A stretch of 64,000 bases of DNA, taken from NCBI GenBank assembly GCA_963753345.1, contig CAVWBU010000032.1:96001-160000 (forward strand). The letters run 5' to 3'. The notes beneath the pieces are model-generated. The model was given only the letters and a program-made list of their open reading frames with translations. It searched no databases and was not told the origin of the DNA. Shown one piece after another: positions 4,484 to 62,398 of this stretch. The stretch comes from an uncultured Fibrobacterota bacterium. Lineage in GTDB: Bacteria; Fibrobacterota; Chitinivibrionia; Chitinivibrionales; FEN-1185. Each line of letters opens with the position of its first letter. The first letter of the stretch is position 1. Made by a program: the position numbers and the translations under genes.

Positions 4484-4650
4484 GCCGCGCGTTAGGTGGA
4501 CCGAAGGGTGAGCAAGAGCGAATTGCCGGCCGACCCTCCCCGAAGGGGACTACGGGCGGTCCGGCAACGAGGCGGACGGCCGAGCCCGCAGGGAGACCGA
4601 CCCTTGGTTGGGGCGCCTGGTCCTGCGCTCCAACCAAGGGGAACGCCCAA
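4484..4650 (+). repeat. Structured intergenic repeat, module A copy 1
   Basis: GCCGCGCGTTAGG…GGGGAACGCCCAA; close homologue of 24208-24348. Confidence 0.9.
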
Positions 4651-4688
4651 TTCTTCCTGCTTTGTCAAAAGAACTCCTAGAGGTACTC

Positions 4689-5399
4689 ATGCCTTCCCCC
4701 ATCATTACAAGCATCCGTAAATCGCTCAGGCAAAGCAGCAGCGAAAAGACCAGAAGGACCGCGGAAACGTTCTTCAGGGAAAAGGCGAAATTTCACGGCG
4801 CGCCTTCCGCGGCATATCGGAAAATAGGACGCGAGCATTTCGCACAGGTGAAGAAGCTGGACAAGCGTGAGATCCTCTCCCTGTGCGAAGAGTTGTTGCA
4901 ATCCGGATATGTCGAAGAGGCGATCATCGCGTACGAATGGGCCGACCGGCTGCGCTCCTCGTTTACGGAATCGGATTTCACCGTGTTTGAACGGTGGCTC
5001 AGGAAGTACGTGAGCAACTGGGCCGAATGCGACACCCTGTGCAACCATGCGGTGGGATCGTTTGTGGAACAGTATCCTGCCTTTGTCAATCGCCTCAAGA
5101 TCTGGGCGAAATCGGGCAGCAGATGGTTCAGGCGCGCTGCGGCCGTGACGCTCGTTCTTCCCGCGCGCCGCGGGAAATTCCTTGCGGACGTTTTTGAGAT
5201 CGCCGGCATTCTCCTGGCCGACAGCGACGATCTCGTGCAAAAGGGGTACGGCTGGATGCTCAAAGAGGCAAGCAAGCTTCATCCGAAGGAAGTGTTCGAT
5301 TTCATCATGAAGCGCAGAACGGCGATTCCGCGGACCGCCTTGCGTTATGCAATTGAAAAGATGCCCCGTTCCATGAGGAAAAAGGCGATGGAGCGATGA
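4689..5399 (+). CDS. DNA alkylation repair protein (AlkD-like)
   Basis: NWAECD, W-RRAA, DDLVQKGYGWMLKE and RTALRYAIEK motifs. Confidence 0.9.
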   Translation: MPSPIITSIRKSLRQSSSEKTRRTAETFFREKAKFHGAPSAAYRKIGREHFAQVKKLDKREILSLCEELLQSGYVEEAIIAYEWADRLRSSFTESDFTVFERWLRKYVSNWAECDTLCNHAVGSFVEQYPAFVNRLKIWAKSGSRWFRRAAAVTLVLPARRGKFLADVFEIAGILLADSDDLVQKGYGWMLKEASKLHPKEVFDFIMKRRTAIPRTALRYAIEKMPRSMRKKAMER

Positions 5400-5528
5400 A
5401 GGGGAAGACCTAGGCGGCGGCGCCTTATCGGATTCTTCAGCCTGATTTTTTTTGAGCAAAAATCCCGTTTTTATTATATACTAACGGTATCAACATTTGC
5501 GTATCCACCTCAGGAAGGAGTCATTCGC

Positions 5529-6284
5529 ATGCCCATAGCATTTCTCCGCGCATCCGCCATTTTGGTTGTCCCGCTGTTGTTTTTTCTCATGGACGTCAAT
5601 TGCACCGTCACAAGCCAACCGACAACCCCGACGTCCCTTGCAACGCCGTCGTATCCGTACACCGCCGCGGCCGGCGAGTCCGACACCGTGTCGTGGGACC
5701 TGGTGCAGGGCGCAACCTCCTACACGCTGTACTATACAACCGACGAGAGTTTCCCAACCTTGTCGTCGCCTCGTATTTCGGTGGGGGCGGCGACGGTTTT
5801 CGTGCATAAAAGTCTTGACCCGACGTTGACGTACACCTATTGCGTTCAGGCGGCGGGCGGGGGCAGGGTAAGCGATCTTTCCGACGAAAGCTACGGGGTG
5901 CAGCCGCTGCCCATGATCCATGCCACCATTACCTTCGACAGCTACGCGGATGCGGATGTGGGTTTCATGTATTTCCTGATCGGGATTGACACCAACGGTA
6001 ACTACGTACCCACTGCCGGCACAAGACGGACCGTGGCCGGATTCACCGATGGCTACGGCAGCGCGACGTTCAACGTCACGGTCGATCACGACAATCTTTG
6101 GGGGTATTCGACATTCGAGGACTTGGACGGCAACGGGCTTCTGTCGACCGGCGACATGGTGTGGGGCAACGACACGAGCGCCGGCCATTATGGATATTTT
6201 TACTGGACGTCACAGTTCACATCGAGCAAAACCTTTTCCAAATCGTTTGACGAGGCGTTCGCCTCATTGCCGCATGTCTACTGA
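5529..6284 (+). CDS. Exported fibronectin type III domain protein
   Basis: Hydrophobic N-terminus; VSWDLVQGATSYTLYY…YTYCVQA FN3 pattern; AAGGAG RBS. Confidence 0.65.
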   Translation: MPIAFLRASAILVVPLLFFLMDVNCTVTSQPTTPTSLATPSYPYTAAAGESDTVSWDLVQGATSYTLYYTTDESFPTLSSPRISVGAATVFVHKSLDPTLTYTYCVQAAGGGRVSDLSDESYGVQPLPMIHATITFDSYADADVGFMYFLIGIDTNGNYVPTAGTRRTVAGFTDGYGSATFNVTVDHDNLWGYSTFEDLDGNGLLSTGDMVWGNDTSAGHYGYFYWTSQFTSSKTFSKSFDEAFASLPHVY

Positions 6285-6330
6285 ACCGTCCATATGGGTA
6301 TGTTGACAAATTAAGAAAACATCGAGACGT

Positions 6331-6495
6331 CTACGCCGTCAGCCTGAATGCGACATAAATGCCGAGCAGTGCCCCAACCATGCTGCCGATCAGCGTGCCT
6401 GCCGAAATCGCGCCGGCCCCGAACAGCGTCGGCGCGTAGCCGCCGATGAGCGAGCCCGCCACCATTCCGAACATTATCATTGTTTTTCGCGACAT
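6331..6495 (-). CDS. Small glycine-zipper membrane protein (54 aa)
   Basis: MSRKTMIMFGMVAGSLIGGY…GSMVGALLGIY; two hydrophobic segments. Confidence 0.7.
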   Translation of the reverse strand: MSRKTMIMFGMVAGSLIGGYAPTLFGAGAISAGTLIGSMVGALLGIYVAFRLTA

Positions 6496-6594
6496 GTTTC
6501 CTTGGCTCCGATCTCTGCCAATAATTAATAATAGTTCTGGTGGGGACACTAATGAGTAATCTTAAAAAAGAATAGGGCGTTCCCCGCAAGACAA

Positions 6595-6654
6595 AAGAAG
6601 AGTTGGGCGCCCCGCGGCTTCGCCGCAGCGAGGGGGATACTTCCCCCGCCAACA
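6595..6654 (-). repeat. Minimal composite repeat: B outer end fused directly to A outer end
   Basis: Reverse complement of 6622-6654 matches 23874-23906 at 32/33 nt, then continues GAAGCCGCGGGGCGCCCAACTCTTCTT like the end of module A. A second A-end copy lies at 6568-6587. Confidence 0.85.
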
Positions 6655-6662
6655 ACTTTTTG

Positions 6663-8108
6663 TTATTGATTATTATCTTTTGTCAATTCCTGGGCCGCAA
6701 ACCCTAATTTCAGCAGTGTGTCTTCCCGCCATTTCGGAGCCATAAACTGCACGCCCACGGGAATGCCGTTGCTTTTTCCGCACGGGACCGAGATCCCCGG
6801 TATGCCAGCAAGGTTTGCCGAAACGGTGTAGATGTCGGTGAGGTACATCTGGAGCGGGTCGTCGCACTTTTCGCCGATTTTGAACGCGGGCGTCGCGGCG
6901 ACAGGGGAGACGACGGCGTCGCATTTCGTAAACGCGGCGTCGAAGTCGCGGCCGATAAGGGTGCGCACCCGCGCGGCCTTGAGGTAGTAGGCGTCGTAGT
7001 AGCCCGAGGACAGCACGTAGGCGCCGAGCATGATGCGGCGCTTGACTTCCGCGCCGAACCCTTCGCGCCGCGTGGTCTGATACATGTCGACAAGGGATTT
7101 AGGGTCAGCCGAGCGGTACCCGTACTTGACGCCGTCGTACCGTGCGAGGTTGCTCGAGGCTTCCGCGGTGCAAATAATATAGTAGGTGGCGATACCGTAC
7201 CCGAGATTGGGCAGTGAGACATGGGCCGTTTTACAGCCCGAGGCCTTGAGCTTGTCAAGAAGCGACTCTATGGGGCCGCGTACCTCGGCCGACAGGCCTT
7301 CGCCGAAGTATTCTTTGGGAACGCCCACCGTGATGCTGCTCGCGCCGCCTGTGTAAAGGTCATTGGTGTTTGCAAATTGATTGCCCGCGCAGGTGGAGTC
7401 GCGTTTGTCGGGCACCGAGAGCACCTCAAGAAGAAGGCCGATGTCCCGCACGTCCGCGGCAATGGGCCCTATCTGATCGAGCGACGACGCGAACGCCACA
7501 AGGCCGTACCGCGACACGCGTCCGTAGGTCGGCTTGAGTCCGACGCTGCCGCAATGGCAGCACGGCTGGCGAATGGAACCGCCCGTGTCGGACCCGAGCG
7601 CCAGCGGCACAAGGCCGGCCGCAACCGCGGCGGCGCTGCCGCCGCTCGAGCCGCCCGGGATGCGGCCGGGGTCGTTGGGGTTTTTTGTGGGGCCGAAATA
7701 GGAGTTCTCGGTGCTCGAGCCCATGGCGAATTCGTCAAGGTTCGTTTTTCCCACAATAACGGCGCCCGCGGCCAGGAGCGCCTCCGCGACGGTCGCGTTG
7801 TAGGGCGGAACAAAATTTTCAAGGATTTTTGACGCGCACGTTGTGGTGACGCCCTCGGTGCATATATTGTCCTTGACGGCGACCGGAATGCCGCACAGCG
7901 GCATCGTCTTCTTGACGTCTGCGGAAAGGGTGTCTATGAAATCGGCGCGCAAAAGCGCTGCTTCGGGCTGCACCGAGATGAACGAATGGAGATCCTTATC
8001 GCGGCCGGCGATGCGGCCGAGGGCGGTCGAGACGAGTTCGCGGCTGGATACCTTGCCGTGTGCGCATTTCGCAACAACGCCCGACACGGGCTCGTCGAAG
8101 AAGTTCAT
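6663..8108 (-). CDS. gatA: Asp-tRNA(Asn)/Glu-tRNA(Gln) amidotransferase subunit A
   Basis: GKTNLDEFAMGSS, GGSSGGSA, GSDTGGSIRQP, EASSNLARYDG and EVKRRIMLG motifs. Alternative start at 8138. Confidence 0.97.
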   Translation of the reverse strand: MNFFDEPVSGVVAKCAHGKVSSRELVSTALGRIAGRDKDLHSFISVQPEAALLRADFIDTLSADVKKTMPLCGIPVAVKDNICTEGVTTTCASKILENFVPPYNATVAEALLAAGAVIVGKTNLDEFAMGSSTENSYFGPTKNPNDPGRIPGGSSGGSAAAVAAGLVPLALGSDTGGSIRQPCCHCGSVGLKPTYGRVSRYGLVAFASSLDQIGPIAADVRDIGLLLEVLSVPDKRDSTCAGNQFANTNDLYTGGASSITVGVPKEYFGEGLSAEVRGPIESLLDKLKASGCKTAHVSLPNLGYGIATYYIICTAEASSNLARYDGVKYGYRSADPKSLVDMYQTTRREGFGAEVKRRIMLGAYVLSSGYYDAYYLKAARVRTLIGRDFDAAFTKCDAVVSPVAATPAFKIGEKCDDPLQMYLTDIYTVSANLAGIPGISVPCGKSNGIPVGVQFMAPKWREDTLLKLGFAAQELTKDNNQ

Positions 8109-8125
8109 GGGGCGGTTCCCGGGGT

Positions 8126-8425
8126 TTACTTGTACCACCTGAACAGGTAGAGGCTCACGAAAACGCCGATGATCGAAAGCAGGTTGAATTTCATCTGGAA
8201 ACCGAGCTGGAACTTGATTGCCGCAATATCGATGAGCAGCGGCTTGTTGTTCACGAAATCACCGAATCCGAAGGAGATGAAATTATAGGTGAAGAACGTC
8301 TTGACCACGTTGTTGCCGCCCGGAATAAGGGCGAAGAGCGTGCCGAGATACGCGCCGATGAGAATGCCCACAATAACGAGGAGCACCAGCGTCCATATGT
8401 TTCTGTCCTTGAGGCCGATGGCCAT
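8126..8425 (-). CDS. DUF4321-like membrane protein
   Basis: 99 aa with two hydrophobic ends; IDIAAIKFQLGFQMKFNLLSIIG pattern. Confidence 0.75.
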   Translation of the reverse strand: MAIGLKDRNIWTLVLLVIVGILIGAYLGTLFALIPGGNNVVKTFFTYNFISFGFGDFVNNKPLLIDIAAIKFQLGFQMKFNLLSIIGVFVSLYLFRWYK

Positions 8426-8652
8426 GGCGTATTCCTTTTTTTATGTTGATAAAAGGATGATGCGCACGAATCCAGGCGCGGACGGTTCGGTGGTTTTGGG
8501 ACCGATATAGAATATAATTCTTCTGCCGTTGATCCACCCGGCCTTGGAAAGCCGGATCATGAAAAAGAACTTCACCACAGAGGCACGGAGAACACGGAGA
8601 AAGAAGATCAAGTCAAGGACAAGTACGAGATCGTTGATGCATTTGTCTTGCT

Positions 8653-8673
8653 GTCAACCGTCAACTGTCAACC
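8653..8673. repeat. Heptamer tandem repeat (GTCAACY x3)
   Basis: gtcaacc gtcaact gtcaacc, just past the protease stop codon. Confidence 0.7.
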
Positions 8674-8685
8674 ATTGGCTTTGTT

Positions 8686-21231: not shown

Positions 21232-21362
21232 TCAACTACCGCTCTTGGGTGCCCCCACACAGCACCATGGTTCTGCAACCGCCTCCACTCGGGGTGCACC
21301 CAGGAGGGGGTAGCGGAGGACGCCGAAGGCGGCTGAAGCGAGGGGGAAACTTCCCCCACAAA
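21232..21362 (+). repeat. Structured intergenic repeat, module B copy 1
   Basis: TGGGTGCC…CACCCAGGAGGGGGTAGCG…AGCGAGGGGGAAACTTCCCCCAC; homologous to the reverse complement of 23874-24037. Confidence 0.85.
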
Positions 21363-23873: not shown

Positions 23874-24037
23874 TGTTGGTGGGGGAAGTATCCCCCTCGC
23901 TGCGGCCCGGCGCTACCTAACAACTCAACTCTCGTCAATCGCGCCGGTCCTTCGCTACCCCCTCCTGGGTGGCCGCCTTGACAAAGCGGTAGCAAAACCA
24001 TGTATTGCTGTGGCGGCACCCACGGAGAATAGTTGAA
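23874..24037 (-). repeat. Structured intergenic repeat, module B copy 2
   Basis: Reverse complement aligns end to end with 21232-21362, with a longer internal hairpin. Confidence 0.85.
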
Positions 24038-24090
24038 ACGTTGAATAGTTGAAAAGCCAATACCAGAAAACTGGACAAAGAAAAACAAGT

Positions 24091-24118
24091 GTCATTGCGA
24101 GCGCAGCGAAGCAATCTC
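24091..24118. repeat. REP-like short palindrome GTCATTGCGAGCGCAGCGAAGCAATCTC
   Basis: ATTGC…GCAAT stem; partial second copy GTCATTGCGAG near 36097. Confidence 0.6.
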
Positions 24119-24207
24119 CCAATGATTTTTACCTAAAAGAACCTTGTCTGATTTGCTGCGAATGCCGATTGGCGTGAGAATGTAACTTGACGGAATAGAG
24201 TTCTTCT

Positions 24208-24348
24208 GCCGCGCGTTAGGTGGACCGGAGGGTGAGCTAGAGCGAATTGCCGGCCGACCCCGGCCGAAGGCCATCGGGGCGGTCCGGCAACGAGGCGAAC
24301 AGCCGAGCCCGCAGGGAGACCGACCCCGCGAAGCGGGGGAACGCCCAA
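24208..24348 (+). repeat. Structured intergenic repeat, module A copy 2
   Basis: GCCGCGCGTTAGGTGGACC…GGGGGAACGCCCAA. Confidence 0.9.
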
Positions 24349-24372: not shown

Positions 24373-25143
24373 TTATAAGTGTTGGCCCTCAGGCGGCACA
24401 TCGGGCAGGGGACTCATGTTAAAGTAGAGCTTTACAAACAGGGTAAACGCCTCTTCGAATTTCTTTCCGTACGACACTTCCGGGTTGCGGCCCGGGTTGT
24501 CGAGCTCGAGCTTCTGCCACTCCTTCAGCTGATACACCAGTTCCCTCGATATGATGCGCAATTTGATGATCTGGTTGTTCTGCGTCTGCCACGCATGTAT
24601 CCGCGCGTCGGATTTGGGAGAGGTGAGCGAGATGTCGAAGGCCGAGTCGGGGATGCAGATGCTTTTCGGCAGGGCGTAGGGAGAGTTGCGCGCCGCGCAA
24701 TACAAGAAGTAAAAACCTTTCAGGAACCGCGGGAAGAACGCGTCGAGGTACAAAAGCTTGTCCCACCGCTCGTGCTGCAGGTCGCGCTCGAAGGTCTCGA
24801 GCGTCGGAATAAACGTTTTGACCACGCGGTTGAGAATGTCCGCCTCAAAACTTGAAATCATGAATGCCTTGTCGGGCGGCTCATCGTGCATGATTTTCTG
24901 GCGCCCGTCCTTGGTCACCTTCACTTCGAAGTCGGTGACCGGCGCGATAAGGACGTAGTACGATTCGTCTTCGTCGGAACCGCCGAAACTCACCTTCACT
25001 TTTTCAAATTGATGGGTCTCGTCGTTGAAGGAGACGTTGAGCCGCGCAAGAGGAATTCCGTAGGACGTGCGTTTGCCCGGTGTTTCCGCGCCCGCGAGGG
25101 AGAGCAGCGCAATGATCGCGATGAGTAGGATCTGAGGAACCAC
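24373..25143 (-). CDS. Exported hypothetical protein
   Basis: Signal peptide; host-like codon usage; follows the fusA operon. Confidence 0.72.
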   Translation of the reverse strand: MVPQILLIAIIALLSLAGAETPGKRTSYGIPLARLNVSFNDETHQFEKVKVSFGGSDEDESYYVLIAPVTDFEVKVTKDGRQKIMHDEPPDKAFMISSFEADILNRVVKTFIPTLETFERDLQHERWDKLLYLDAFFPRFLKGFYFLYCAARNSPYALPKSICIPDSAFDISLTSPKSDARIHAWQTQNNQIIKLRIISRELVYQLKEWQKLELDNPGRNPEVSYGKKFEEAFTLFVKLYFNMSPLPDVPPEGQHL

Positions 25144-35558: not shown

Positions 35559-35846
35559 ATGATAGACAAAGAACATGTCAAGCACATTGCCAACCTTTCC
35601 CGCTTGTCACTTTCGGATGCCGAGACCGAAGCGTTCACCCATCAACTCGCCTCGATCATCGGCTACATGGATCAGCTTAACAAAGCGGACACTTCTGGCG
35701 TGGAGCCCACCGCGTTCATCGCGCCCGCCCGCGACCCCATGCGCGAAGATGCCGAAACACCCTCGCTGCCCCGTGAAAAGCTGCTTGCCAACGGCCCCAA
35801 AGTCAAGAACGGGCATTTTGCGGTGCCGAAGGTTATTAATCAATAA
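35559..35846 (+). CDS. gatC: Asp/Glu-tRNA amidotransferase subunit C
   Basis: HIANLSRL, GVEPT, REDA and FAVPKVI motifs. Confidence 0.95.
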   Translation: MIDKEHVKHIANLSRLSLSDAETEAFTHQLASIIGYMDQLNKADTSGVEPTAFIAPARDPMREDAETPSLPREKLLANGPKVKNGHFAVPKVINQ

Positions 35847-35865: not shown

Positions 35866-36022
35866 TTGGGCGTTCCCCTCCCCCTCGACAAAGCTCGGGG
35901 TCGGGTCGGTTCTCCTTCCGGTCTCGGCCTTCGGCCTCGGGCCGCCTCGGCCCTATGCCGCGTGGCGCGGCGGGTCCGGGCGGCATCCCACTTTGGCGGG
36001 ACCTCCAGTCGCCCCTAACGCG
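35866..36022 (-). repeat. Structured intergenic repeat, module A copy 3 (inverted)
   Basis: Reverse complement CGCGTTAGGGGCGACTGGAGG…GAGACCGGAAGGAGAACCGACCC…GGGGAACGCCCAA; closest to 62231-62398. Confidence 0.9.
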
Positions 36023-36160
36023 AAAACCAAAACAACAACTGGAAGCTGGGTTTTTTTTATTGCCGCGCGCAGTATACCAATGAAGTTGCAGAAAGCGTCA
36101 TTGCGAGTGCTTGGAATTCCAGGTGGCGCAAAGATGTAATTGACTTAACGGATTTCTTCT

Positions 36161-36306
36161 GCCGCGCGCTAGGCAGGACCGGAGTGGTCCCGCCGTAGCG
36201 GGATTGCCGGCCGACCCCTCGCCGAAGGCGACTAGGGGCGGACCGGCAACGAGGCGAACAGCCGAGCCCGGAGGGAGGGCCGCCGCTGCGAAGCAGCGGG
36301 GCGCCC
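36161..36306 (+). repeat. Structured intergenic repeat, module A copy 4
   Basis: GCCGCGCGCTAGG…TTGCCGGCCGACCC…CCGGCAACGAGGCGAACAGCCGAGCCCG…GGGGCGCCC. Confidence 0.88.
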
Positions 36307-36331
36307 GATTCTTTTTCTTTGAGCTATTTAT

Positions 36332-36817
36332 TTATCCTAAGTGATTAAACTCCGCATTCTCCAGAAATTCCTTCGGCTCGTTGACAAACTCAAGAAGATG
36401 CTCCACCAGGTGCTCGTGTTTCTGCTCTTCGACGATAAGAAACTGCAGCGCCTTCTTGTCGTCCTTCGAGGAGGCCTTGGAGAGCATGTCGGAGTACAGC
36501 GAGATGCTTTTGGTTTCCAATTCAAGCGCCTTGCCGTAGGCCTGGGCGTAATCGTAGACCGCCTGAGGGAGAACAAACTGCTCCGCGAGACCGGCAAAAA
36601 TGCGCTTCGCCTCCGCCGACGCGGTGCCCGGCTGGGGCGCCCCCGGGGCTTTTTTCTTTTGTTGCCATTCGTTAAAAAGGTCAAAATGCTTCTGCTCCTC
36701 CGAGGCCAAAACCGCAAAGATCCCGGCCAACGCCTTGAACGGAGATTCCGCCCCGAGCTTTTCGTAGTATGCTTTGCCTTCCAGTTCGATGCCCTTTGCG
36801 AGTTCAAGAGGGTCCAT
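36332..36817 (-). CDS. Ferritin-like/rubrerythrin-family protein
   Basis: Two E…EExxH diiron half-motifs (EEQKH twice). Confidence 0.88.
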   Translation of the reverse strand: MDPLELAKGIELEGKAYYEKLGAESPFKALAGIFAVLASEEQKHFDLFNEWQQKKKAPGAPQPGTASAEAKRIFAGLAEQFVLPQAVYDYAQAYGKALELETKSISLYSDMLSKASSKDDKKALQFLIVEEQKHEHLVEHLLEFVNEPKEFLENAEFNHLG

Positions 36818-41894: not shown

Positions 41895-42021
41895 ATTTTT
41901 CTCACACGGCCTCCGGTTGAGGATCTCAATGAGGGCAAAGTCTATCTTTTGACTTGCGTGCTTCGTTGGTGAGAATTCCGGTTGGCGCGAAAAAAAGTAA
42001 TTGACTGAATAGAATTCTGCT

Positions 42022-42196
42022 GCCGCGCGTTAGGGGCGACCGGAAGCCGCTCTGGAGAGCGGTGCCGCCCGGACCTGGCCGCGTACCCGCGGCATTGGGC
42101 CGTGACGGCCCGAGGGCTTGCCCGAGACTGGAGGGAGAACCGCCCCCAGTGTAGAGACGCCACACCGTGGCGTCTCTACACTGGGGGAACGCCCAA
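42022..42196 (+). repeat. Structured intergenic repeat, module A copy 5
   Basis: GCCGCGCGTTAGGGGCGAC…GGGGGAACGCCCAA; the terminal stem is a perfect 21-bp inverted repeat. Confidence 0.9.
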
Positions 42197-42322
42197 TTTT
42201 TTTTGGTATTTGCTCAAACCTCCCTTTCCCTTGAAATCCCCCCCGGTAGCATATATTTTTGATGTTCTTTTTTGACATCACCATCTCCTTTCCATATTAA
42301 TACACACCTTTTGGAGGCTCCT

Positions 42323-45121
42323 ATGGCAAAGTACGTGTACTTTTTCGGCGGCGGCAAGGCCGACGGCAACGAATCGATGAAAAACCTTCTTGGCGGCAAG
42401 GGCGCGAATCTTGCCGAAATGGCCGGACACCCCAAGCTCCGGCTGCCTGTGCCTCCCGGCTTCACGGTCACCACCGAAGTCTGCACCTACTATTATGAGA
42501 ACAAAAAGACCTATCCCAAGGAGCTCAAAGGCCAGGTGAACAAGGCCATGGCCCAGGTTGAAAAACTCATGGGCAAGAAGTTCGGCGATCCCAACGACCC
42601 GCTGCTCATGTCGGTCCGCTCGGGCGCGCGCCGCTCCATGCCCGGCATGATGGACACGGTGCTCAACGTCGGGCTTAACGACGTCACCATCCAGGGTCTT
42701 ATCGCCAAAACCAACAACCCGCGCTTCGCCTACGACGCCTACCGCAGGCTCGTGATGATGTATGCGGACGTTGTCATGGAAAAAGCCGCTGGTATCGAGC
42801 TCGAAGGCGGCAAGGGAATTCGCAAATTGATGGATGAGAGACTTGGCGAGGTCAAGAAACAAAAGGGCTACAAGATCGACACGGACCTGACAGCCGACGA
42901 TCTCAAGGCGCTTGTGGCGGAGTTCAAGCAGATGGTGAAAGACCATCTCGGCCAGTCGTTCCCGGAAACACCTGAGGAACAGTTGTGGGGCGGCATCGGC
43001 GCGGTGTTCATGAGCTGGAACGGCAAGCGCGCGGTCGACTACCGACGCATCGAGAAGATACCGGACGACTGGGGAACTGCGGTCAATGTGCAGAGCATGG
43101 TGTTCGGCAACATGGGCGAGGATTCGGCCACGGGCGTCGCCTTCACGCGCAACCCGGGCAACGGCGACAACCACTTTTACGGCGAATACCTCATCAACGC
43201 GCAGGGTGAAGACGTGGTGGCCGGCATCCGCACGCCCGCTCCCATCAATGCGCAATCGGCAAACGACCAGAGCAGGAACCTTCCCACGCTCGAAAGCGCA
43301 TTTCCTGAATGCTACAAGCAGCTCTTTGCGTTCCAGAACGGGCTCGAAAAGCATTACAAAGACATGCAGGACATCGAATTCACCATTGAAAAAGGCAAGC
43401 TGTACATGCTGCAATGCCGCGTTGGAAAACGCAACGGCGTTGCCGCGGTGCGCATGGCCGTTGACATGTACAAAGAAAAATTGATCGACGCAAATACCGC
43501 CATCATGCGCGTTGGCCCCAACCAGCTCGTGGAGCTCCTGCTGCCCATGATCGATCCCAAGGCGGAAAGCGCCACGTCGCCGATTGCCAAGGGACTTCCT
43601 GCAGGCCCGGGCGGCGCCAAGGGTCGCGCGGTGTTCACGTCGAAGGACGCGGTGGCATGGGCCGAGCGCGGGGAGAAGGTTATTCTTGTCCGTGAAGAAA
43701 CTTCTCCCGAAGACGTTGACGGCATGCACAAGGCCCAGGCCATTCTCACGGCCAAGGGCGGCATGACCTCGCATGCCGCGCTCGTTGCGCGCGGCTGGGG
43801 CAAGTGCTGCGTGGTCGGGTGCGCCGACATCGAGGTCGGCAACGACAACAAGCACTTTACAACCAAGAAGGGCGTCAGCATCAAGGAAGGCGACTGGCTC
43901 ACGCTCAACGGCACCAAAGGCACGGTGTATCAGGGCGGCCTGTCGCTCATCGACGTGGACCTCGCCACGAACACCACCTACAAGGACCTCATGGCGCTTG
44001 TCGACAAAACGCGCGTGCTCAAAGTGCGCACCAATGCCGACACGCCCAAGGACGCCAAAAAGGCCGTGGAGTTCGGCGCGGAGGGCATCGGCCTGTTCCG
44101 CACCGAGCACATGTTCTACGGCGAGGGCTCCGACAAGCCGCTGTTCCTCCTTCGCAAGATGATCATGAGCAAGACGCTTGACGAGCGCAAGGCTGCGCTG
44201 GCCGAGCTGTTCCCGTTCGTCAAAAGCGACATCAAGGCCACCATGGAGGCCATGGGCGGCAGGCCGGTAACCATCCGGCTGCTCGACCCGCCGCTGCACG
44301 AGTTCGTGCCGCACGCGGCCGACAAGCTCGAGGCGCTCGGGCGCGAGCTGCACGTGGACGCGGCGGAGCTTCACAAACGCGCCGAGGGCCTGCGGGAGAA
44401 CAACCCCATGCTCGGTCACCGCGGCGTGCGCCTCGGCATCACGTATCCCGAGATCACCGAGATGCAGGTGCGCGCCATTCTCGAAGCGGCCGGCGAGCTC
44501 ATCAAGGAGGGCAAGGAGGCGAATCCCGAGATCATGATTCCGGTCACCTGCACGGTCGCGGAAATCAATGACCAGAAGGTCATTGTGGACCGCGTGTATC
44601 CGGAAGTTTGCGCGAAAGTGGGACTCAAGAAGATCCCGTTCATGTACGGCACCATGATCGAAATCCCGCGCGCCGCGCTCACGGCCAACAAAATGGCGCA
44701 GACCGCGGAATTCTTTTCGTTCGGCACCAACGACCTCACGCAGATGGGCTTCGGCTTCTCGCGCGACGACATCGGCAGCTTTTTGCCCGATTATCTCAAC
44801 AAGAAGACCCTGCCGGCCGACCCGTTCCAGACCATCGATCAGGAAGGGATCGGCGAGCTCATCAAGATCGGCATCGAGCGCGGACGCTCGGTGCGGCCGA
44901 AGCTCAAGGTCGGGATATGCGGCGAGCACGGCGGCGATGCGGATTCGGTCAAGTTCTGCCACCGCGTGGGCATGAATTATGTTTCCTGTTCGCCCTTCCG
45001 CGTACCCATTGCCCGGCTGGCGGCCGCGCAGGCGGCAGTGGAGGCTTCGGTAAAAACGAAGAAGCCCGCACAGAAGAAAGCCGGCAAGGCGAAGAAATCT
45101 TCTTCCAAGAAGAGAAAGTAA
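42323..45121 (+). CDS. ppdK: Pyruvate, phosphate dikinase
   Basis: LLGGKGANLAEM, SVRSGA, GGMTSHAA, GLFRTEHMF and GICGEHGG motifs. Confidence 0.98.
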   Translation: MAKYVYFFGGGKADGNESMKNLLGGKGANLAEMAGHPKLRLPVPPGFTVTTEVCTYYYENKKTYPKELKGQVNKAMAQVEKLMGKKFGDPNDPLLMSVRSGARRSMPGMMDTVLNVGLNDVTIQGLIAKTNNPRFAYDAYRRLVMMYADVVMEKAAGIELEGGKGIRKLMDERLGEVKKQKGYKIDTDLTADDLKALVAEFKQMVKDHLGQSFPETPEEQLWGGIGAVFMSWNGKRAVDYRRIEKIPDDWGTAVNVQSMVFGNMGEDSATGVAFTRNPGNGDNHFYGEYLINAQGEDVVAGIRTPAPINAQSANDQSRNLPTLESAFPECYKQLFAFQNGLEKHYKDMQDIEFTIEKGKLYMLQCRVGKRNGVAAVRMAVDMYKEKLIDANTAIMRVGPNQLVELLLPMIDPKAESATSPIAKGLPAGPGGAKGRAVFTSKDAVAWAERGEKVILVREETSPEDVDGMHKAQAILTAKGGMTSHAALVARGWGKCCVVGCADIEVGNDNKHFTTKKGVSIKEGDWLTLNGTKGTVYQGGLSLIDVDLATNTTYKDLMALVDKTRVLKVRTNADTPKDAKKAVEFGAEGIGLFRTEHMFYGEGSDKPLFLLRKMIMSKTLDERKAALAELFPFVKSDIKATMEAMGGRPVTIRLLDPPLHEFVPHAADKLEALGRELHVDAAELHKRAEGLRENNPMLGHRGVRLGITYPEITEMQVRAILEAAGELIKEGKEANPEIMIPVTCTVAEINDQKVIVDRVYPEVCAKVGLKKIPFMYGTMIEIPRAALTANKMAQTAEFFSFGTNDLTQMGFGFSRDDIGSFLPDYLNKKTLPADPFQTIDQEGIGELIKIGIERGRSVRPKLKVGICGEHGGDADSVKFCHRVGMNYVSCSPFRVPIARLAAAQAAVEASVKTKKPAQKKAGKAKKSSSKKRK

Positions 45122-57135: not shown

Positions 57136-57164
57136 CGAGATGCTGTGCGATGCGGACTCTGAGC

Positions 57165-57878: not shown

Positions 57879-57985
57879 ACAACACCCCTTTCTTTAATGT
57901 GGAAACCTTTCAACGTCTCTTACGCTGCCAAATCTAAAATATTAAAAGGGAAAGTGATGTCCAACAAAATATCAAAGATTTTCCA

Positions 57986-58402
57986 TCACTCGCCGATTAC
58001 CTGAACAAAAATCTTCCTTCCCCGCGGCCGGTTATCGTGGTCGATGACCACGATCTGCTGCCAGGTTCCGAGAATGAGTTTCCCTTCCGTAAACGGTACG
58101 GAGATTCCCGGGCCCATGAGCGTGGCGCGGAGGTGCGAGAAACCGTTGTCGTCGCCCCAGGTCTCCGAATGGCGGGTCTTAAGACTGCTCGGCACGAGCT
58201 TGTCGAGCCGGTCTTTCATGTCCTGCGCAAGCGCCGGCTCGAATTCAATGGTAGATATGGACGCGGTCGAGCCCACCACAAAGACCGTGGCAATGCCGCT
58301 TTCGATTTCCGATCTTGCAATGATTGACTGGACCTCCGGGGTGATGTTCACGACGTCGGAGAATCCCCGCGTCTGGACGGTAAAACTGTTTCCGAAAACC
58401 AT
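57986..58402 (-). CDS. YjbQ/UPF0047 family protein
   Basis: DNGFSHL, LGTWQQI and DNRPR motifs. Confidence 0.92.
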   Translation of the reverse strand: MVFGNSFTVQTRGFSDVVNITPEVQSIIARSEIESGIATVFVVGSTASISTIEFEPALAQDMKDRLDKLVPSSLKTRHSETWGDDNGFSHLRATLMGPGISVPFTEGKLILGTWQQIVVIDHDNRPRGRKIFVQVIGE

Positions 58403-58522
58403 GAGGCGGCCTTTCTGTTTGTGAAACCAAAATACATTCGGGACTCGCGACTGCGGATTCGCGCTTCGCGGTCGCATGCATGCGGCAGCCGGACATATTT
58501 TCTGTGTGAGGAGAAACTGCGA

Positions 58523-59455
58523 ATGGCCGGTCTTGACGAACACATAGCTCTGTTCCTTGACTACCTGCTCAAGGAAAAAGGCTTCTCGCCGCTCACGGTC
58601 GGGGCGTATGGCGGCGACCTTGCGCAGTTCCGGACCTTTACAGAGCAGACCTGCACCGGCGCGGGGTTCGAAGACGTCATGAAAAAGGCCGTGATGCGCG
58701 ACTTTATTTACGCACAAGGCGAACAGGGCCTTACGCCGCGCTCGATCGCGCGGAAGGTGGCGGCGCTCAAGTCGTTTTCGAAGTTCTGCGTGAGGCGGCA
58801 TATCCTGTCTGTCAACCCTGCAAAGCTCCTGGCAAGCCCCAAGCTCGACAAGCCGCTTCCTGCCTTTCTCACCGAAAGGCAGGCGCGGGAACTGACGGTC
58901 GCCGGCGCTCCCGGCGGGAAACAGCGCGCTGCAACGGATGTGCTCAGGAGCCGGGCCATCGTCGAGCTTTTATACGGCACCGGGCTTCGCCTTGCAGAAC
59001 TGCACGGCCTCAACGCGGACACCATCGATTACAAGCGCGCCACGGTCCGCGTGCTTGGCAAGGGGAGAAAAGAGCGGGTGGTGCCGGTCACCGATTCGGC
59101 CGTGAATGCAATACGGGAATACTTGAAGACCCGGCCGGGCCTTCCCGGGAACGCGCCGCTTTTCGCAGGCCGCAGGGGAGGCCGCCTTTCCCGCAGGCAG
59201 ATAGAACGCATCGTTGCGCAGGAACTTTCCGCGGTCACCAGTCAGAGGAAACGCAGCCCGCACGTGCTCAGGCATTCGTTCGCCACGCACCTGCTCGACC
59301 GCGGGGCCGACATCCGCGCGGTCAAGGAGCTGCTCGGCCACTCGTCGCTGGCAACCACGCAGATCTACACCCACATGTCAAAGGAACACCTGCTCAAGGT
59401 GTACCGCAGGGCGCACCCGCGCGCCGAGGTTGCGCGTCCTGCCGGGCAAAGCTGA
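58523..59455 (+). CDS. xerC: Tyrosine recombinase XerC/XerD family
   Basis: LYGTGLR, GKGRKER, HVLRHSFATHLL and LLGHSSLATTQIY motifs. Confidence 0.9.
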   Translation: MAGLDEHIALFLDYLLKEKGFSPLTVGAYGGDLAQFRTFTEQTCTGAGFEDVMKKAVMRDFIYAQGEQGLTPRSIARKVAALKSFSKFCVRRHILSVNPAKLLASPKLDKPLPAFLTERQARELTVAGAPGGKQRAATDVLRSRAIVELLYGTGLRLAELHGLNADTIDYKRATVRVLGKGRKERVVPVTDSAVNAIREYLKTRPGLPGNAPLFAGRRGGRLSRRQIERIVAQELSAVTSQRKRSPHVLRHSFATHLLDRGADIRAVKELLGHSSLATTQIYTHMSKEHLLKVYRRAHPRAEVARPAGQS

Positions 59456-59470
59456 CAATTCCTCAACGGA

Positions 59471-59497
59471 AAAAGCCGGAACACTGCTCCGGCTTTT
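59471..59497. terminator. Bidirectional terminator
   Basis: AAAAGCCGGA-acactgc-TCCGGCTTTT between convergent genes. Confidence 0.75.
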
Positions 59498-59516
59498 GTC
59501 AATCTGTTTGCGGTAA

Positions 59517-60017
59517 CTACTCGTCGGAGCCGGGTGGCCCGCCATGCCCGCCGGGAGGACCATGATGCGGCCCGTCTCCATGGTGGTCGCCCTGCATGGG
59601 CGGACGAAGCTCGTTGCTCAGCAGCTTTTCAAACTGTTCCTTGGTGAGAACGGACTTGAGCGCGATCATGTGGTCGGCCATCTGTTCCGCCATCGCCCTG
59701 TGGAGCTCGCCCATTTCCTTTGCATAGCCGTGCAGAACGGTCTTGGAAGGAGAGGGTTTGAGCAGCTCATCCTTGCTTTTGTCAAGGAGCACCTTCATTT
59801 TTTCGAAGTTCTGCTTGCGAAACTCCATCGACTGCTTCCTCATGTCCTTGAGCCTGGCCTTCTGATTTTCGGAAAGGCCGAGCTGCGCCCAGATCCTGTG
59901 GCGTGTCGAATCCCTTGAAAATGAGGCGGAATCCTGCGCGCCTTGCGCGCCCTGCGCGTGCGGCGCGGCGACCATCAGACAGAGAGTCAGTCCACTCAAG
60001 GTCATTGCGAAACGCAT
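59517..60017 (-). CDS. Periplasmic Spy/CpxP/ZraP-like protein
   Basis: Signal peptide; LGLSENQK and VLTKEQ LTxxQ-like motifs; His/Gly/Pro-rich tail. Confidence 0.85.
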   Translation of the reverse strand: MRFAMTLSGLTLCLMVAAPHAQGAQGAQDSASFSRDSTRHRIWAQLGLSENQKARLKDMRKQSMEFRKQNFEKMKVLLDKSKDELLKPSPSKTVLHGYAKEMGELHRAMAEQMADHMIALKSVLTKEQFEKLLSNELRPPMQGDHHGDGPHHGPPGGHGGPPGSDE

Positions 60018-60033
60018 ACTGCCCTCCACGGTT

Positions 60034-60360
60034 CTATTCCTGATACAAAACCTCTTCGTAATAGCCGTACGAATTCGAGTTTTCGCGGTACACGTCGCTG
60101 TTGATATAGGTGTTGACGCCGTTCAGGTCTTCGGCGATTTCGGCCGAATACGACGCGCGCGACGGCGACAGACGCAGTGCGGTGAACACCGACACCGCGA
60201 TAAGCAGCGACGCCGCCAGACCGAAAACGGTACGTTCCACGGCCCTTCTCCTGTTGATGCGCCGGATAACGGCGCCGTACAGGTTCTCCGGCAGCGGCGG
60301 AATGCTTGCGAGCTGGGCGAGCGCGGCCCGCGGCATCTGGTTCTCAAAATTCTGTTCCAT
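60034..60360 (-). CDS. Putative membrane anti-sigma factor
   Basis: Single TM helix (AASLLIAV); immediately downstream of the ECF sigma gene. Confidence 0.65.
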   Translation of the reverse strand: MEQNFENQMPRAALAQLASIPPLPENLYGAVIRRINRRRAVERTVFGLAASLLIAVSVFTALRLSPSRASYSAEIAEDLNGVNTYINSDVYRENSNSYGYYEEVLYQE

Positions 60361-60369
60361 AAAAACCCC

Positions 60370-60897
60370 CTAATTTTCCCCGAACTTCTTCCGTATTTCC
60401 TCCTTGAGCCGAAAGAGCTGCGTACGGAGGCTTCCCGCGCTCTTGCCCGTGATATCGGCCAGTTCTTCAAACGAGAACCCGAGCATTTCGCGGCCGGTGA
60501 GAAGGAAGCGCTCTTCGGCCGTGATGCTCTTGAGTATTTTCTGCATGTCCTCTTTCACGTCTATGCCTTCCGCCGATGATACCGTTGGTCCAGTGTCTTC
60601 GTCAAGTTCCTGCATTTCGTTTACGCGGCTCTGTTTTGAGAGCAGCGTCATGCATGCGTTGAATGTTATCCTGTAAATCCATGTCGATAACGCAGAACCT
60701 CCGCCGAACTTGCGAAGAGAGTTATAGACCCTTATGAACGTCTCCTGAACCGCCTCCTGCGCCGCCCCGGAATCGCCGTGAAGCGTCCGGTAAGCTATTT
60801 TCCATGAAAACGGCGCGTAATAGTCGTACAGCGCCCTAAATGATGCCCGATCTCCTTTTCTCGCGCGCTGTACCGTGAGATCGTCCAGTTCATTCAT
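60370..60897 (-). CDS. ECF RNA polymerase sigma factor
   Basis: VQETFIR, STWIYRITFN and FSFEELA motifs. Confidence 0.92.
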   Translation of the reverse strand: MNELDDLTVQRARKGDRASFRALYDYYAPFSWKIAYRTLHGDSGAAQEAVQETFIRVYNSLRKFGGGSALSTWIYRITFNACMTLLSKQSRVNEMQELDEDTGPTVSSAEGIDVKEDMQKILKSITAEERFLLTGREMLGFSFEELADITGKSAGSLRTQLFRLKEEIRKKFGEN

Positions 60898-61029
60898 TCT
60901 TTCAACCTATTTGACATCAAAAAATGATTCAATGTTACAGAGGGGTAAACTTATTTTACCCCGTACATAAGGATGCTAAAACATACGTTGTGCAGCGGCC
61001 GCATTCAAAGAATTTGAAAGGGGCATACG

Positions 61030-61488
61030 GTGCAAAATCAAGGCAATGCGATCATCGTGGCCTCGGACCACGCAGGGTTCAAGCTCAAGGAGTTTGTCAA
61101 GCGTGAACTGGGGAACCGGTCGATTCCGGTCGAAGACGTCGGGGTGTTCAGCGAGGAGCGGAGCGATTACCCGATATTCATTGCTAGGGCGGCCTCAAAA
61201 GTATCCAGCGGCGCTTTCCGCCGGGGCATCGTCCTGTGCGGGTCGGGGATCGGCGCGTCCATTGTGGCCAACCGGTTCAAGAACGTGCGCGCCGCGCTGT
61301 GCGTGACTCCGGAAATGGCGGAAATGTCCCGCCGGCATAATGACAGCAATGTTCTCGCAATGGGCGAGAGAATCACCCCGCCCGAAACCGCCGCGAAGAT
61401 ACTTTCCGTGTGGCTCGACACGCCGTTTGACGGCGGCCGCCACGAGACACGGGTGCGTCAGATCGACACGGTTGTCGGAACGCAATAA
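61030..61488 (+). CDS. rpiB: Ribose-5-phosphate isomerase B
   Basis: SDHAG, CGSGIG, HNDSN and FDGGRH motifs. Confidence 0.96.
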   Translation: MQNQGNAIIVASDHAGFKLKEFVKRELGNRSIPVEDVGVFSEERSDYPIFIARAASKVSSGAFRRGIVLCGSGIGASIVANRFKNVRAALCVTPEMAEMSRRHNDSNVLAMGERITPPETAAKILSVWLDTPFDGGRHETRVRQIDTVVGTQ

Positions 61489-61496
61489 CGCAGGAG

Positions 61497-61961
61497 ATGC
61501 CGATGACGGCCAGGAAAACGCGCGCCCGCAGGCGCACGCGCGCCCCGTGGGACGAGTACTTCATGAAGATCGCGCAGCAGGTGGCCACGCGCTCGACCTG
61601 CGACCGCAAGAACGTGGGCGCGGTGATCGTGCGCGACAAGACCATCCTTTCGACCGGGTACAACGGCAGCGTGCGCGGTATGCCGCACTGCGACGACGTG
61701 GGCCACACCATGGAAAACGGCCACTGCATCGCCACGGTGCACGCCGAAGCCAATGCGATCATCCAGGCCGCCAAGAACGGCGTGGCGCTTGACGGAGCGG
61801 ACATCTACATAACGGCGTCGCCGTGCTGGCACTGCTTCAAGCTCATCGCCAACAGCGGGATAAAGAGGATTTTCTACCTCGAATTCTACCGCGACAATCA
61901 CGTCATTGAAGTAGCGGGACAGGCGGGAATAGAGTTAAGGCAAGTAGTAATTAATTCTTGA
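61497..61961 (+). CDS. dCMP deaminase (ComEB family)
   Basis: WDEYFM, TGYNG, HAEANA and PCWHC motifs. Confidence 0.93.
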   Translation: MPMTARKTRARRRTRAPWDEYFMKIAQQVATRSTCDRKNVGAVIVRDKTILSTGYNGSVRGMPHCDDVGHTMENGHCIATVHAEANAIIQAAKNGVALDGADIYITASPCWHCFKLIANSGIKRIFYLEFYRDNHVIEVAGQAGIELRQVVINS

Positions 61962-61971
61962 ACCAATAATC

Positions 61972-62172
61972 TTGCTGGGGGCACCGCTTCGCGTTTCCCC
62001 CTCGCTTCGGCCTCCTCGGCCTTCGGCCTGCGGTGTCCTGCGCTACCCCCTCCAGCAAAGGGGCGCGCGAGGTCGCTCGCTTGACGCTCGCGAAGCGTCG
62101 CCCCTTCGCAACGCAACCGTTGCGGAACAACCCCCTCCGCCTTCGGCACCTCCCCCTTAACAAGGGGGAGGA
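61972..62172 (-). repeat. Structured intergenic repeat, module C copy 2 (contains the B core)
   Basis: Homologous to 40904-41127; the reverse complement includes GGAGGGGGTAGCGCAGGAC…GAAGCGAGGGGGAAAC as in module B. Confidence 0.88.
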
Positions 62173-62230
62173 CATTCAATACTGCAGTTATTGATGGTTG
62201 GTGGTTTAAGAAATGGCGACGACCCTGACT

Positions 62231-62398
62231 GCCGCGCGTTAGGGGCGACTGGAGGCCGCGCTGGAGCGCGGTGCCGCCTGACCACGGCCCGCAGGGCCAT
62301 TGTGGCAGGCGGCCCGAGGCCGAAGGCCGAGACCGGAAGGAGAACCGACCCCCAGTACAGTGGTGCATCCTGCACTACCGTACTGGGGAAACGCCCAA
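62231..62398 (+). repeat. Structured intergenic repeat, module A copy 6
   Basis: GCCGCGCGTTAGGGGCGACTGGAGG…GGGGAAACGCCCAA. Confidence 0.9.

Follow-up and report, generated by a model that had tools for sequence, protein, structure and literature searches.

Does selection maintain the fold of Module A, a non-coding unit repeated six times in the window (the 64,000-nucleotide stretch of DNA analysed here as a whole), and if so, what kind of element is it?

Results

All six copies were found at the positions and on the strands that an earlier note on this DNA had given them. Its division into two subfamilies (A, copies 1, 2 and 4; B, copies 3, 5 and 6) was seen in alignment A1, and the four terminal stems that it quoted are present in exactly that form, each differing in sequence yet staying paired. 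The cores lie at 4488-4650 (+), 24212-24348 (+), 35866-36022 (-), 36165-36308 (+), 42026-42196 (+) and 62235-62398 (+). Copies begin with GCCGCGCGTTAGG (copy 3 with TTTTCGCGTTAGG) and finish with GGGAACGCCCAA (copy 4 with GGGGCGCCCGA). A covariance model trained on 46 copies (R1) recovered exactly these six from the window at E ≤ 0.001, with E-values from 3.9e-29 to 1.5e-44, which is far beyond chance.

Copy 1 (subfamily A, 4484-4650, +; R1 151 bits, E 1.5e-44) carries a long terminal hairpin and is followed by a DNA_alkylation gene in the same orientation (4689-5399; Pfam). Copy 2 (subfamily A, 24208-24348, +; 145.8 bits) is the shortest of the six, and its 3' end faces, at a distance of 25 nt, the stop of a convergent ORF called by our own gene finder (24373-25143, -). 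Copies 3 and 4 are arranged head-to-head: the distance from the 3' end of copy 3 (subfamily B, 35866-36022, -; 114.8 bits) to the stop of gatC, a convergent gene (35559-35846, +; Pfam GatC), is 20 nt, and that from the 3' end of copy 4 (subfamily A with the P1 variant GCGCU/GGCGC, 36161-36308, +; 113.2 bits) to the stop of a rubrerythrin gene, also convergent (36332-36817, -; Pfam), is 24 nt. Copy 5 (subfamily B, 42022-42196, +; 100.9 bits) is followed, 75 nt downstream, by the PPDK gene (42272-45121, +; Pfam) and lies before that gene's own promoter-like box; this site is also occupied in four of five genomes of the genus. Copy 6 (subfamily B, 62231-62398, +; 126.9 bits) faces another convergent gene, His_biosynth (62429-63193, -; Pfam), with 31 nt from its 3' end to the stop of that gene.

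Module A folds into a 5-bp closing helix, P1 (GCGUU/AACGC), that encloses four to six GC-rich hairpins connected by conserved purine-rich linkers (GGAGG, CGAGGCGAAnAGCCGAG and CCGACCC). The branched unit spans GCCGCGCGUUAGG to GGAACGCCCAA and measures 105-240 nt. In copy 2, on the plus strand throughout, the 5' strand of P1 (GCGTT, 24213-24217) pairs with AACGC at 24340-24344 in the MFE fold. P1 pairs covary across families (UA to CG, GC and AU), and the versions seen are GCGUU/AACGC, GCGCU/AGCGC, GCGUG/CACGC, GCGCC/GGCGC and GGCCU/AGGCC. P3 (24233-24246; GUGAGC-UAGA-GCGAAU), which contains tandem G.A/A.G, was assigned from the helix 2 pair counts and from alignment A3; other copies have GUGCGC/GCGCAU, UCCCGC/GCGGGA or CCGCGC/GCGCGG instead. 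P4 (24248-24289) is a long bulged hairpin in the MFE fold, UGCCGG.../...CCGGCA with a C-GAA-G cap, and all 16 of its 16 pairs (helices 3-5 of alignment A4) had changed on both sides. P5 (24291-24307; C-GA-GGC GAACA GCC-GA-G; helices 7-8) is, in sequence, the best-conserved block of the whole family. P6 (24308-24316), a small hairpin seen in the alignment (CCC-GCA-GGG) and followed by the conserved AGACCGAC, has weaker support, as its register is not the same in both subfamilies. The variable terminal hairpin P7 (24324-24338) reads CCCCGC-GAA-GCGGGG in copy 2; 104 such terminal segments, extracted from 114 copies, included 85 distinct ones and ranged from 15 to 117 nt.

The helices are nearly all Watson-Crick, with G-U in only 37 of 2819 cells. 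Loops are mostly C-GNA-G triloops (193 of 465 triloops), and just 6 of 381 tetraloops are GNRA. Triloops of this C-GNA-G type are particularly stable when the DNA is single-stranded. Folding energy by itself is weak evidence for the structure: for copy 2, the z-score was -2.14 for the sense RNA (3 of 200 shuffles were as good), -1.29 for the antisense RNA and -1.61 for DNA.

The stronger evidence comes from covariation in two alignments, A4 (84 sequences) and A5 (31 sequences from other families, other orders and one genome labelled as another phylum, with just one sequence from the window's own genus). In A4, 33 of 37 pairs had changed on both sides and 89.7% of cells were paired, compared to 35-51% with partners slid, a level reached in none of 500 shuffles; in A5 the values were 34 of 37 and 88.7%, compared to 31-48%, and as both alignments were fitted to the model, these pair counts lean towards it. 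The covariation score of the slid-partner controls was 5-10 times lower. The proposal that this is a structured non-coding family whose pairing is kept under sequence change is therefore well supported, with about 89% of cells paired, compared to 31-51% when slid, over the two alignments, and Module A shows the covariation across distant relatives that is generic to structured RNA families. The linker nucleotides are likewise conserved across orders and across a phylum-level gap. Selection appears to act on the fold of one strand and on the linker nucleotides. Compensatory change has preserved the fold across orders, and also in a genome of another phylum-level group, which indicates that something reads the structure.

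The element is far more widespread than six copies in one lineage, which was the scope of the earlier note. A profile search of the window's own genome (G000, 4.5 Mb) gave 426 matches, 351 of them with a complete core, which make up 1.93% of the DNA; all 150 of 150 scored candidates matched over the full length. Four of the five other genomes of the genus are saturated with Module A, and the fifth (G003) had none among 67 candidates scored. Matches occurred in 37 of 151 genomes of the phylum sample, in other orders, and in a genome titled Saprospiraceae (G153, which holds locus L079), where 125 of 150 scored candidates matched; G100 had 39 matches. Around G153, matches were confined to 3 of 36 relatives and to 7 of the 150 other genomes of its phylum sample. 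Copies per genome range from 1-5 up to over 125-350, in a patchy distribution. Most genomes of family f10 have 1-5, and in its low-copy genomes all four of the four copies inspected lie 60-77 nt upstream of a co-directional gene. A scattered occurrence of this kind, with bursts in separate lineages, is what a spreading element typically shows.

Does Module A belong to a catalogued RNA family? A cmscan of the whole window against Rfam 15 (4227 covariance models, including RF01705) gave no match at the gathering score, and at E ≤ 5 no match fell on a copy. The loci from other lineages were likewise without an Rfam 15 match (L079 at E ≤ 10, L108-L112 at the gathering score and seven further loci at E ≤ 1), so that across the window and the other-lineage loci searched no Rfam 15 family lies at a Module A position. 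This includes Flavo-1 (RF01705), to which the ends of the unit had been likened: its model stayed below the gathering score on every copy.

Module A is intergenic and occurs in both orientations. Among the 335 copies with a called gene on both sides, 110 were in convergent spacers, 104 in co-directional spacers in sense, 67 in co-directional spacers in antisense and 54 in divergent spacers, as judged with our own gene finder, a crude one that marks 75% of the genome as coding. A copy is present in about 25% of convergent spacers, compared to about 8% of co-directional ones, an enrichment of around threefold. Copies build up where they are least harmful, at gene 3' ends and between convergent genes. 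Where copies are paired, 26 pairs are head-to-head, 3 tandem and 2 tail-to-tail. Orientation is weakly linked to the G-rich strand (129 versus 91).

Module A is one module of a mosaic repeat system, in which it is mixed with other repeat modules. An AT-rich box (..TTGGCGT..TTGAC.GAATAGAGTTC.., by consensus and profile coordinates) lies directly before copy 2 (24149-24207, +), and the same box precedes copies 1 (4432-4483), 4 (36109-36160) and 5 (41966-42021) and is missing at copies 3 and 6. Genome-wide, 229 of the 351 complete copies carry it and 98 do not; it is also missing in other lineages. A second structured repeat family, Module U, lies directly upstream of copy 2 (23879-24027, +), followed by short GTTGAA repeats (24028-24056). 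Module U has 282 matches in the genome, and 159 of these are directly upstream of one of the 351 Module A copies.

The hairpins are exchangeable, as had been proposed: entire hairpins are gained, lost or substituted, and this holds for orthologous sites too. Alignment A3 contains an optional hairpin (..CACCCGAAGGGGTG..) that has entered at three separate positions; at the orthologous PPDK site there are reduced forms, 88-nt and mini, and at another site only the termini are left as a remnant. For 27 copies of the closest relatives with anchors on both sides, G000 has a same-strand copy at around 18 sites and lacks one at around 9; two of the latter were inspected and neither was a clean empty site, one being a remnant of an internal deletion and the other an indel of a gene together with the element. 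All 15 of the 15 positional orthologues compared were less alike (0.49-0.86) than the best paralogue (0.81-0.93), and they differ through block replacement with hairpin variants found elsewhere in the family. Module A thus diversifies by gain, loss and swap of whole hairpins at the repeated CCGACCC joints. Young copies are almost absent, with only about 10 pairs reaching 93% whole-unit identity once segmental duplicates are excluded, and there was no sign of current mobility.

We found no partner enzyme. G000 (94% complete) contains no Y1 transposase (0 of 2 candidates), reverse transcriptase or TnpB-type domain, and no transposase-like family occurs among the proteins neighbouring Module A. 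PF01797 (Y1) was not found in G000, G001, G100 or G096. Y1 genes are present in G002, G004, G005, G022 and G153, and none of 9 Y1 or TnpB-type loci had a convincing Module A within 1.5 kb. Single units have no terminal inverted repeats, their ends having only the 5-bp P1 in common, and the flanks of 7 head-to-head pairs contain no target-site duplication or direct repeat.

Discussion

What kind of element would behave in this way? We see about an even chance that Module A is a dispersed element of the REP/BIME/BOX kind, with the single-strand fold as the object of selection. High copy number, either orientation and mosaic context speak for a dispersed repeat at least as much as for an RNA gene. 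The most likely reason for selection on the fold would be that a trans-acting protein recognises the folded strand, as RNA or single-stranded DNA, during copying or recombinational exchange. Transcribed within neighbouring messages, the units would fold at gene ends into a structured block of very high stability, which could halt exonucleases or read-through. Several observations count against a dispersed repeat, namely the lack of a mobilising enzyme, of terminal inverted repeats and of target-site duplications, the scarcity of young copies, and the position of the f10 copies upstream of co-directional genes. In addition, linker conservation across lineages is seen more typically in functional RNAs than in selfish repeats, and the purine-rich loops, the tandem G.A pairs and the better sense z-score argue for one functional strand.

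Alternatively, the copies would be real non-coding RNA genes or cis-acting RNA domains, whose conserved multi-helix junction binds a protein or ligand, transcribed from their own upstream box and amplified to hundreds in a few lineages. This is possible, if somewhat unlikely. It accords with the covariation among distant relatives (34 of 37 pairs), the conserved unpaired linkers, the strand-specific purine loops and tandem G.A pairs, the slightly better folding of the sense strand of copy 2 and the low-copy f10 genomes. It also accords with the conserved upstream box of 229 of the 351 copies, the TAGATTTC of which resembles the -7 element consensus TAnnTTTG, as found in front of PPDK. However, the box lacks a TTG at the spacing of the PPDK promoter-like box, besides being absent from many copies and from other lineages. 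The downstream genes are unrelated (DUF5915, ATPase_2/DUF234, GGDEF, thioesterase, PPDK and alkylation repair), half of the G000 copies are directed into a convergent gene at its 3' end, presence varies and hairpins are swapped at orthologous sites, and the near-absence of G-U pairs is unusual for RNA families.

A bolder proposal, which we consider unlikely, is that Module A represents a new structured nucleic-acid class. Its conserved multi-helix junction would be the working part, as a protein docking site or catalytic RNA, and self-copying would be guided by structure instead of terminal repeats. Module A would also have passed between lineages labelled Bacteroidota and those of Fibrobacterota, with bursts to hundreds of copies in some of them.

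It is quite improbable that the unit is a structure-based transcription stop or insulator, or a protector of mRNA 3' ends, domesticated at gene ends and acting on any incoming transcript. Such a role fits the convergent-spacer enrichment, the T-rich run after the unit in G000 (consensus TcTTTTttTT) and the spacing to neighbours: the 3' end of the profile match, which includes 15 nt of downstream flank, is a median of 5 nt from the stop when the downstream gene is convergent, and a median of 59-111 nt from the start, leaving room for a promoter, when it is co-directional, as at the PPDK site, where the element is just upstream of the gene's own promoter-like box. However, 121 of 335 copies have no co-directional upstream gene to terminate, and a simple hairpin would suffice, leaving the conserved junction and linkers unexplained. 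Nor is the unit an intrinsic terminator, in which a GC-rich hairpin is directly followed by a U-run: the T-run begins 4 nt past P1 and about 10 nt past the last hairpin, P7, and is replaced by A-rich sequence in the f10 and G153 copies.

Very improbable is a recognition structure for single-strand DNA transposition, REP-like and served by a RAYT or IS200/IS605-type tyrosine (HUH) transposase, since, although Watson-Crick-only helices with C-GNA-G triloops, BIME-like head-to-head pairs, location at gene ends and the Y1 genes of five genomes suit it, the copy-rich G000 and G100 are among the four genomes without Y1, no Y1 or TnpB-type locus is flanked by Module A, the link to the G-rich strand is weak, and the unit is long and branched, not a 20-40 nt palindrome.

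If Module A is a dispersed repeat, it would be the most structurally elaborate one described in bacteria, and its lack of terminal repeats, duplications and a partner transposase suggests that it spreads by a novel route; should it be an RNA, the class is new and widespread. In either case, about 2% of a genome consists of one folded element listed in no catalogue. The hundreds of near-repeats also matter for the annotation and assembly of metagenome-derived genomes, where they break contigs and create false ORFs. The small, complete genomes of a sister family of the phylum, in which Module A occurs at 1-5 copies, make transcript mapping and deletion tests practical.

How does Module A compare with known systems? 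Flavo-1 is given in Table 1 of PMC2864571 as a Bacteroidetes motif, likely to be an RNA and not cis-regulatory. Both are candidate non-coding motifs of the Fibrobacterota-Chlorobiota-Bacteroidota group without a tie to a downstream gene, and one Module A carrier is labelled Saprospiraceae, but, compared by its Rfam model, Flavo-1 matches no Module A copy at any threshold tried. MITEs, such as the Correia elements of Neisseria and the P. gingivalis MITE, are similarly non-coding, intergenic and high in copy number, and vary in presence among relatives. They differ in that the single Module A unit has no terminal inverted repeats, no target-site duplication was seen in 7 head-to-head pairs, and near-identical young copies are lacking.

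The REP/BIME of enterobacteria and pseudomonads are built from a short (20-40 nt) imperfect palindrome, and a Y1 (HUH) RAYT gene is flanked by the repeats. Module A shares their hundreds of intergenic copies, their location at gene 3' ends and in convergent spacers, their inverted, head-to-head pairs and their mosaic with short motifs, and would, as its predicted fold suggests, also form stable hairpins when transcribed. It differs from RAYT-associated REP/BIME in having neither the short-palindrome unit nor, among the 9 Y1 or TnpB-type loci, a repeat-flanked Y1 gene; with its closing helix and four to six hairpins over 105-240 nt, its fold is far more elaborate, and its linkers are conserved across orders. 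The BOX elements of Streptococcus pneumoniae (boxA-boxB(n)-boxC) likewise have conserved end modules around internal modules that vary in number, along with a strong predicted fold, no identified mobilising enzyme and >100 copies. They are unrelated in sequence, and in Module A the modules are single hairpins, inserted at CCGACCC joints within one junction, in a family that spans phylum-level groups.

Copies, boundaries and anatomy of Module A

The six window copies of Module A, a folded intergenic repeat family, lie where the earlier note had placed them (4484-4650, 24208-24348, 35866-36022, 36161-36306, 42022-42196 and 62231-62398), as inspection of the sequence showed. A MAFFT alignment of the six, with a mean column identity of 68%, bore out both the conserved ends and the division into subfamilies 1/2/4 and 3/5/6. 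R1, a covariance model of 163 positions and 37 base pairs made from 46 copies, recovered these six copies and no others in the window at a cutoff of E ≤ 0.001; their E-values run from 3.9e-29 to 1.5e-44.

The window's own genome (4.52 Mb in 55 contigs, 55.9% G+C) holds many more. A strict end-to-end pattern found 114 copies, and a profile that included 60 nt of upstream sequence gave 426 matches, 351 of them with a complete core; the total amounts to 1.93% of the genome. All 150 candidates scored in this genome matched R1 over its full length. Around some copies, stretches of 1.3-1.5 kb are 99.9-100% identical between contigs (C44, C45, C46 and a few other contig pairs), and these are likely to be assembly duplicates or recent segmental duplications.

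The unit starts with GCCGCGCGUUAGG and ends with GGAACGCCCAA. In near-identical pairs of copies the likeness stops 2-14 nt 5' of CGCGTTAGG and 0-13 nt 3' of GCCCAA; because they diverge exactly at the ends that had been proposed, those ends delimit a natural unit. The helix P1 (GCGUU/AACGC) closes a junction bearing P3, a long bulged P4 and P5 (C-GA-GGC...GCC-GA-G, with tandem G.A pairs), and conserved GGAGA..CCGACCC comes after a small hairpin, P6. The last hairpin, P7, varies between copies: the 114 pattern copies yielded 104 terminal segments, 85 of them distinct, with lengths of 15-117 nt. An optional hairpin (..CACCCGAAGGGGTG..) was found at three different insertion points, and minimal forms of 105-115 nt retain P1, P3, a 3-bp P4, P5, the linkers and P7.

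Distribution and known families

Records matching the conserved two-block pattern were labelled Chitinivibrionales, Chitinispirillaceae, Fibrobacteres or Fibrobacterota, plus one Saprospiraceae. Module A saturates four of the genus's five other genomes, and the fifth, G003, had none among 67 candidates scored. The scans took in roughly 400 genomes altogether. At least 37 of 151 genomes in the phylum sample match the model. These include a 2.3 Mb genome with at least 39 matches and at least 20 of the 55 genomes of another family, f10, mostly with at least 1-5 copies each. The genome with the Saprospiraceae-titled locus gave at least 125 matches among 150 candidates scored; few of its relatives (at least 3 of 36) also match, and a compact second model, R2, matches at least 7 of the 150 other genomes sampled from its phylum. 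A pattern scan of viral contigs gave no match and blastn found none in plasmids and phages; a scan of metagenomes returned 73 stretches.

With cmscan, Rfam 15 gave no match in the window at the gathering score, none on the window copies at E ≤ 5, and none on copies from other lineages. The resemblance to Flavo-1 that the earlier note suspected was therefore not borne out, the comparison being by Rfam model. Flavo-1 is listed in Table 1 of PMC2864571; the portions of the literature covered by our search hold no description of an element like Module A.

Pairing is kept while sequence changes

The claim that Module A keeps its pairing despite sequence change held up in two alignments. Changes on both sides were seen in 33 of the 37 pairs among 84 distinct sequences from several genomes and in 34 of the 37 among 31 sequences, one of them from the window's genus; both counts are per sequence, not per event, and are biased in favour of the model to which the alignments were fitted. 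Paired cells made up 89.7% of the larger alignment, against 35-51% with slid partners, and 88.7% of the smaller, against 31-48%. The observed pairing values were reached in none of 500 shuffles of the 84 sequences, a control that ignores relatedness. A single distant genome has five different complementary forms of P1.

The helices are almost purely Watson-Crick (G-U in 37 of 2819 cells). Among the loops the C-GNA-G type dominates, with 193 of 465 triloops, and GNRA occurs in only 6 of 381 tetraloops. Triloops of this type confer unusual stability on single-stranded DNA, so the strand that folds could be either DNA or RNA, or both. The annotated strand is marked as the folding one by its purine-rich loops and tandem G.A pairs. 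Folding energy alone is weak evidence here, because any equally GC-rich sequence folds well; for copy 2 the z-scores were -2.14 for sense RNA, -1.29 for antisense RNA and -1.61 for DNA. Counts of G-U against A-C were uninformative as to the folded strand, since the mismatches are concentrated at three pairs that align poorly. We also rejected an alternative helix, which would join the 5' linker to the 5' strand of P4: its excess of complementarity is small (-9.75 against -8.77 kcal/mol) and it is broken in several combinations.

Conserved linkers, low-copy lineages and strand-specific loops speak for a true RNA family, which we regard as possible though doubtful. Riboswitch identity was rejected on the ground that the genes downstream are unrelated, and identity with integron attC sites on the ground that copies occur in either orientation, dispersed among housekeeping genes.

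Position relative to genes

Genes were called with a codon-usage gene finder made for this analysis (2968 genes, 75% coding), whose calls matched Pfam for those window genes that were checked. Of the copies, 335 are flanked on either side by a called gene: 110 of these have convergent neighbours, 104 lie in sense and 67 in antisense between co-directional genes, and 54 have divergent neighbours. Module A thus occupies about 25% of convergent spacers compared to about 8% of co-directional ones. In the window, copies 2, 3, 4 and 6 each face a convergent gene whose stop codon is 20-31 nt from their 3' end, and co-directional genes lie downstream of copies 1 and 5. In f10 genomes, each of the four copies inspected has a co-directional gene 60-77 nt downstream, and these genes are unrelated. 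A role as terminator or insulator ranks lower than an RNA family, and we consider it unlikely. Orientation is only weakly biased by replication strand: 129 copies against 91, 83 being undecided.

At four f10 loci (L113, L115, L118 and L120), short C/A-rich tandem repeats of the CACACCT and CCTAAAT/CCCTAA types stand 30-90 nt upstream of Module A and are partly complementary to TTAGGG at its 5' end.

Between copy 5 and the PPDK start codon is the gene's own promoter-like box, TTG-N20-TATTTTTG (TTGAAA-N17-TATATTTTTG; window ~42229-42262), which matches the -33/-7 type of Bacteroidota. In each of the genus's six genomes the box is conserved. As it sits downstream of the element and is kept in Module A-free G003, Module A is not the PPDK leader.

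Mosaic partners

An AT-rich box (TTGGCGC..TTGAC.GAATAGATTTC) precedes 229 of the 351 complete copies. Directly upstream of 159 copies is Module U, a second GC-rich structured repeat family (consensus start GTGGGGGAAGT.TCCCCC, end GGGGGCACCCA; 282 matches in the genome), with short GTTGAA repeats in between. In the window, Module U lies at 23879-24027 (plus strand), 21244-21359 (minus) and, in part, 61993-62055 (plus), and short tandem (A)GTTGAA(A) repeats fill 24028-24056 between Module U and the Module A box; such repeats also appear in a consensus made from about 200 copies. Neighbouring Module A copies no more than 700 nt apart are arranged head-to-head in 26 cases, in tandem in 3 and tail-to-tail in 2.

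Upstream of copy 6 (window ~61975-62185) are other GC-rich repeat modules (..CTTCGCAACGCAACCGTTGCGGAA.., ..CCCCCTTAACAAGGGGGAGG..), which also adjoin Module A copies at loci of two other genomes, G001 and G005. A small hairpin, GTCATTGCGAG..CGAAGCAATC, found between modules at ~24091-24116 and 36095-36110, looks like another short dispersed palindrome.

Turnover, probable exchange and the question of mobility

The PPDK site is filled in four of five genus members, by full, 88-nt reduced, mini and differently capped forms; the 88-nt one seems to have arisen by deletion between the two CCGACCC repeats. In the closest relatives, 27 copies are anchored on both sides; for about 18 of them the window's genome has a partner on the same strand, and for about 9 it does not. 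Positional orthologues were 0.49-0.86 alike, compared to 0.81-0.93 for the best paralogue, and were the less alike in all 15 cases compared. They differ in whole blocks, which have been replaced by hairpin variants that are common in other family members, a sign of exchange among copies. Almost no pairs are >93% identical over the unit, so no recent burst has taken place.

One site of the window's genome that lies outside the window (contig C26:231284-231440) holds a 35-nt palindrome made up solely of two inverted Module A 3' termini (TTGGGCGTTCC..hairpin..GGGGCGCCCAA) and a Module U end remnant; there, a close relative has the full composite of Module U, box and Module A.

Domain searches found neither a Y1 transposase nor a reverse transcriptase or TnpB-type domain in the window's genome, the Y1 genes of other carriers have no flanking Module A, no target-site duplication was seen at Module A, and the proteins flanking its copies belong only to ordinary large paralogue families; that Module A is a substrate of an HUH transposase also ranks lower, and is very improbable.

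We give about an even chance to our preferred reading, which is suggested by copy number, occurrence in either orientation, location at gene ends and head-to-head pairs, together with the mosaic partners, the patchy spread across lineages and the swapping of hairpins: Module A would be a REP/BIME/BOX-like dispersed repeat, whose folded single strand is maintained by selection.
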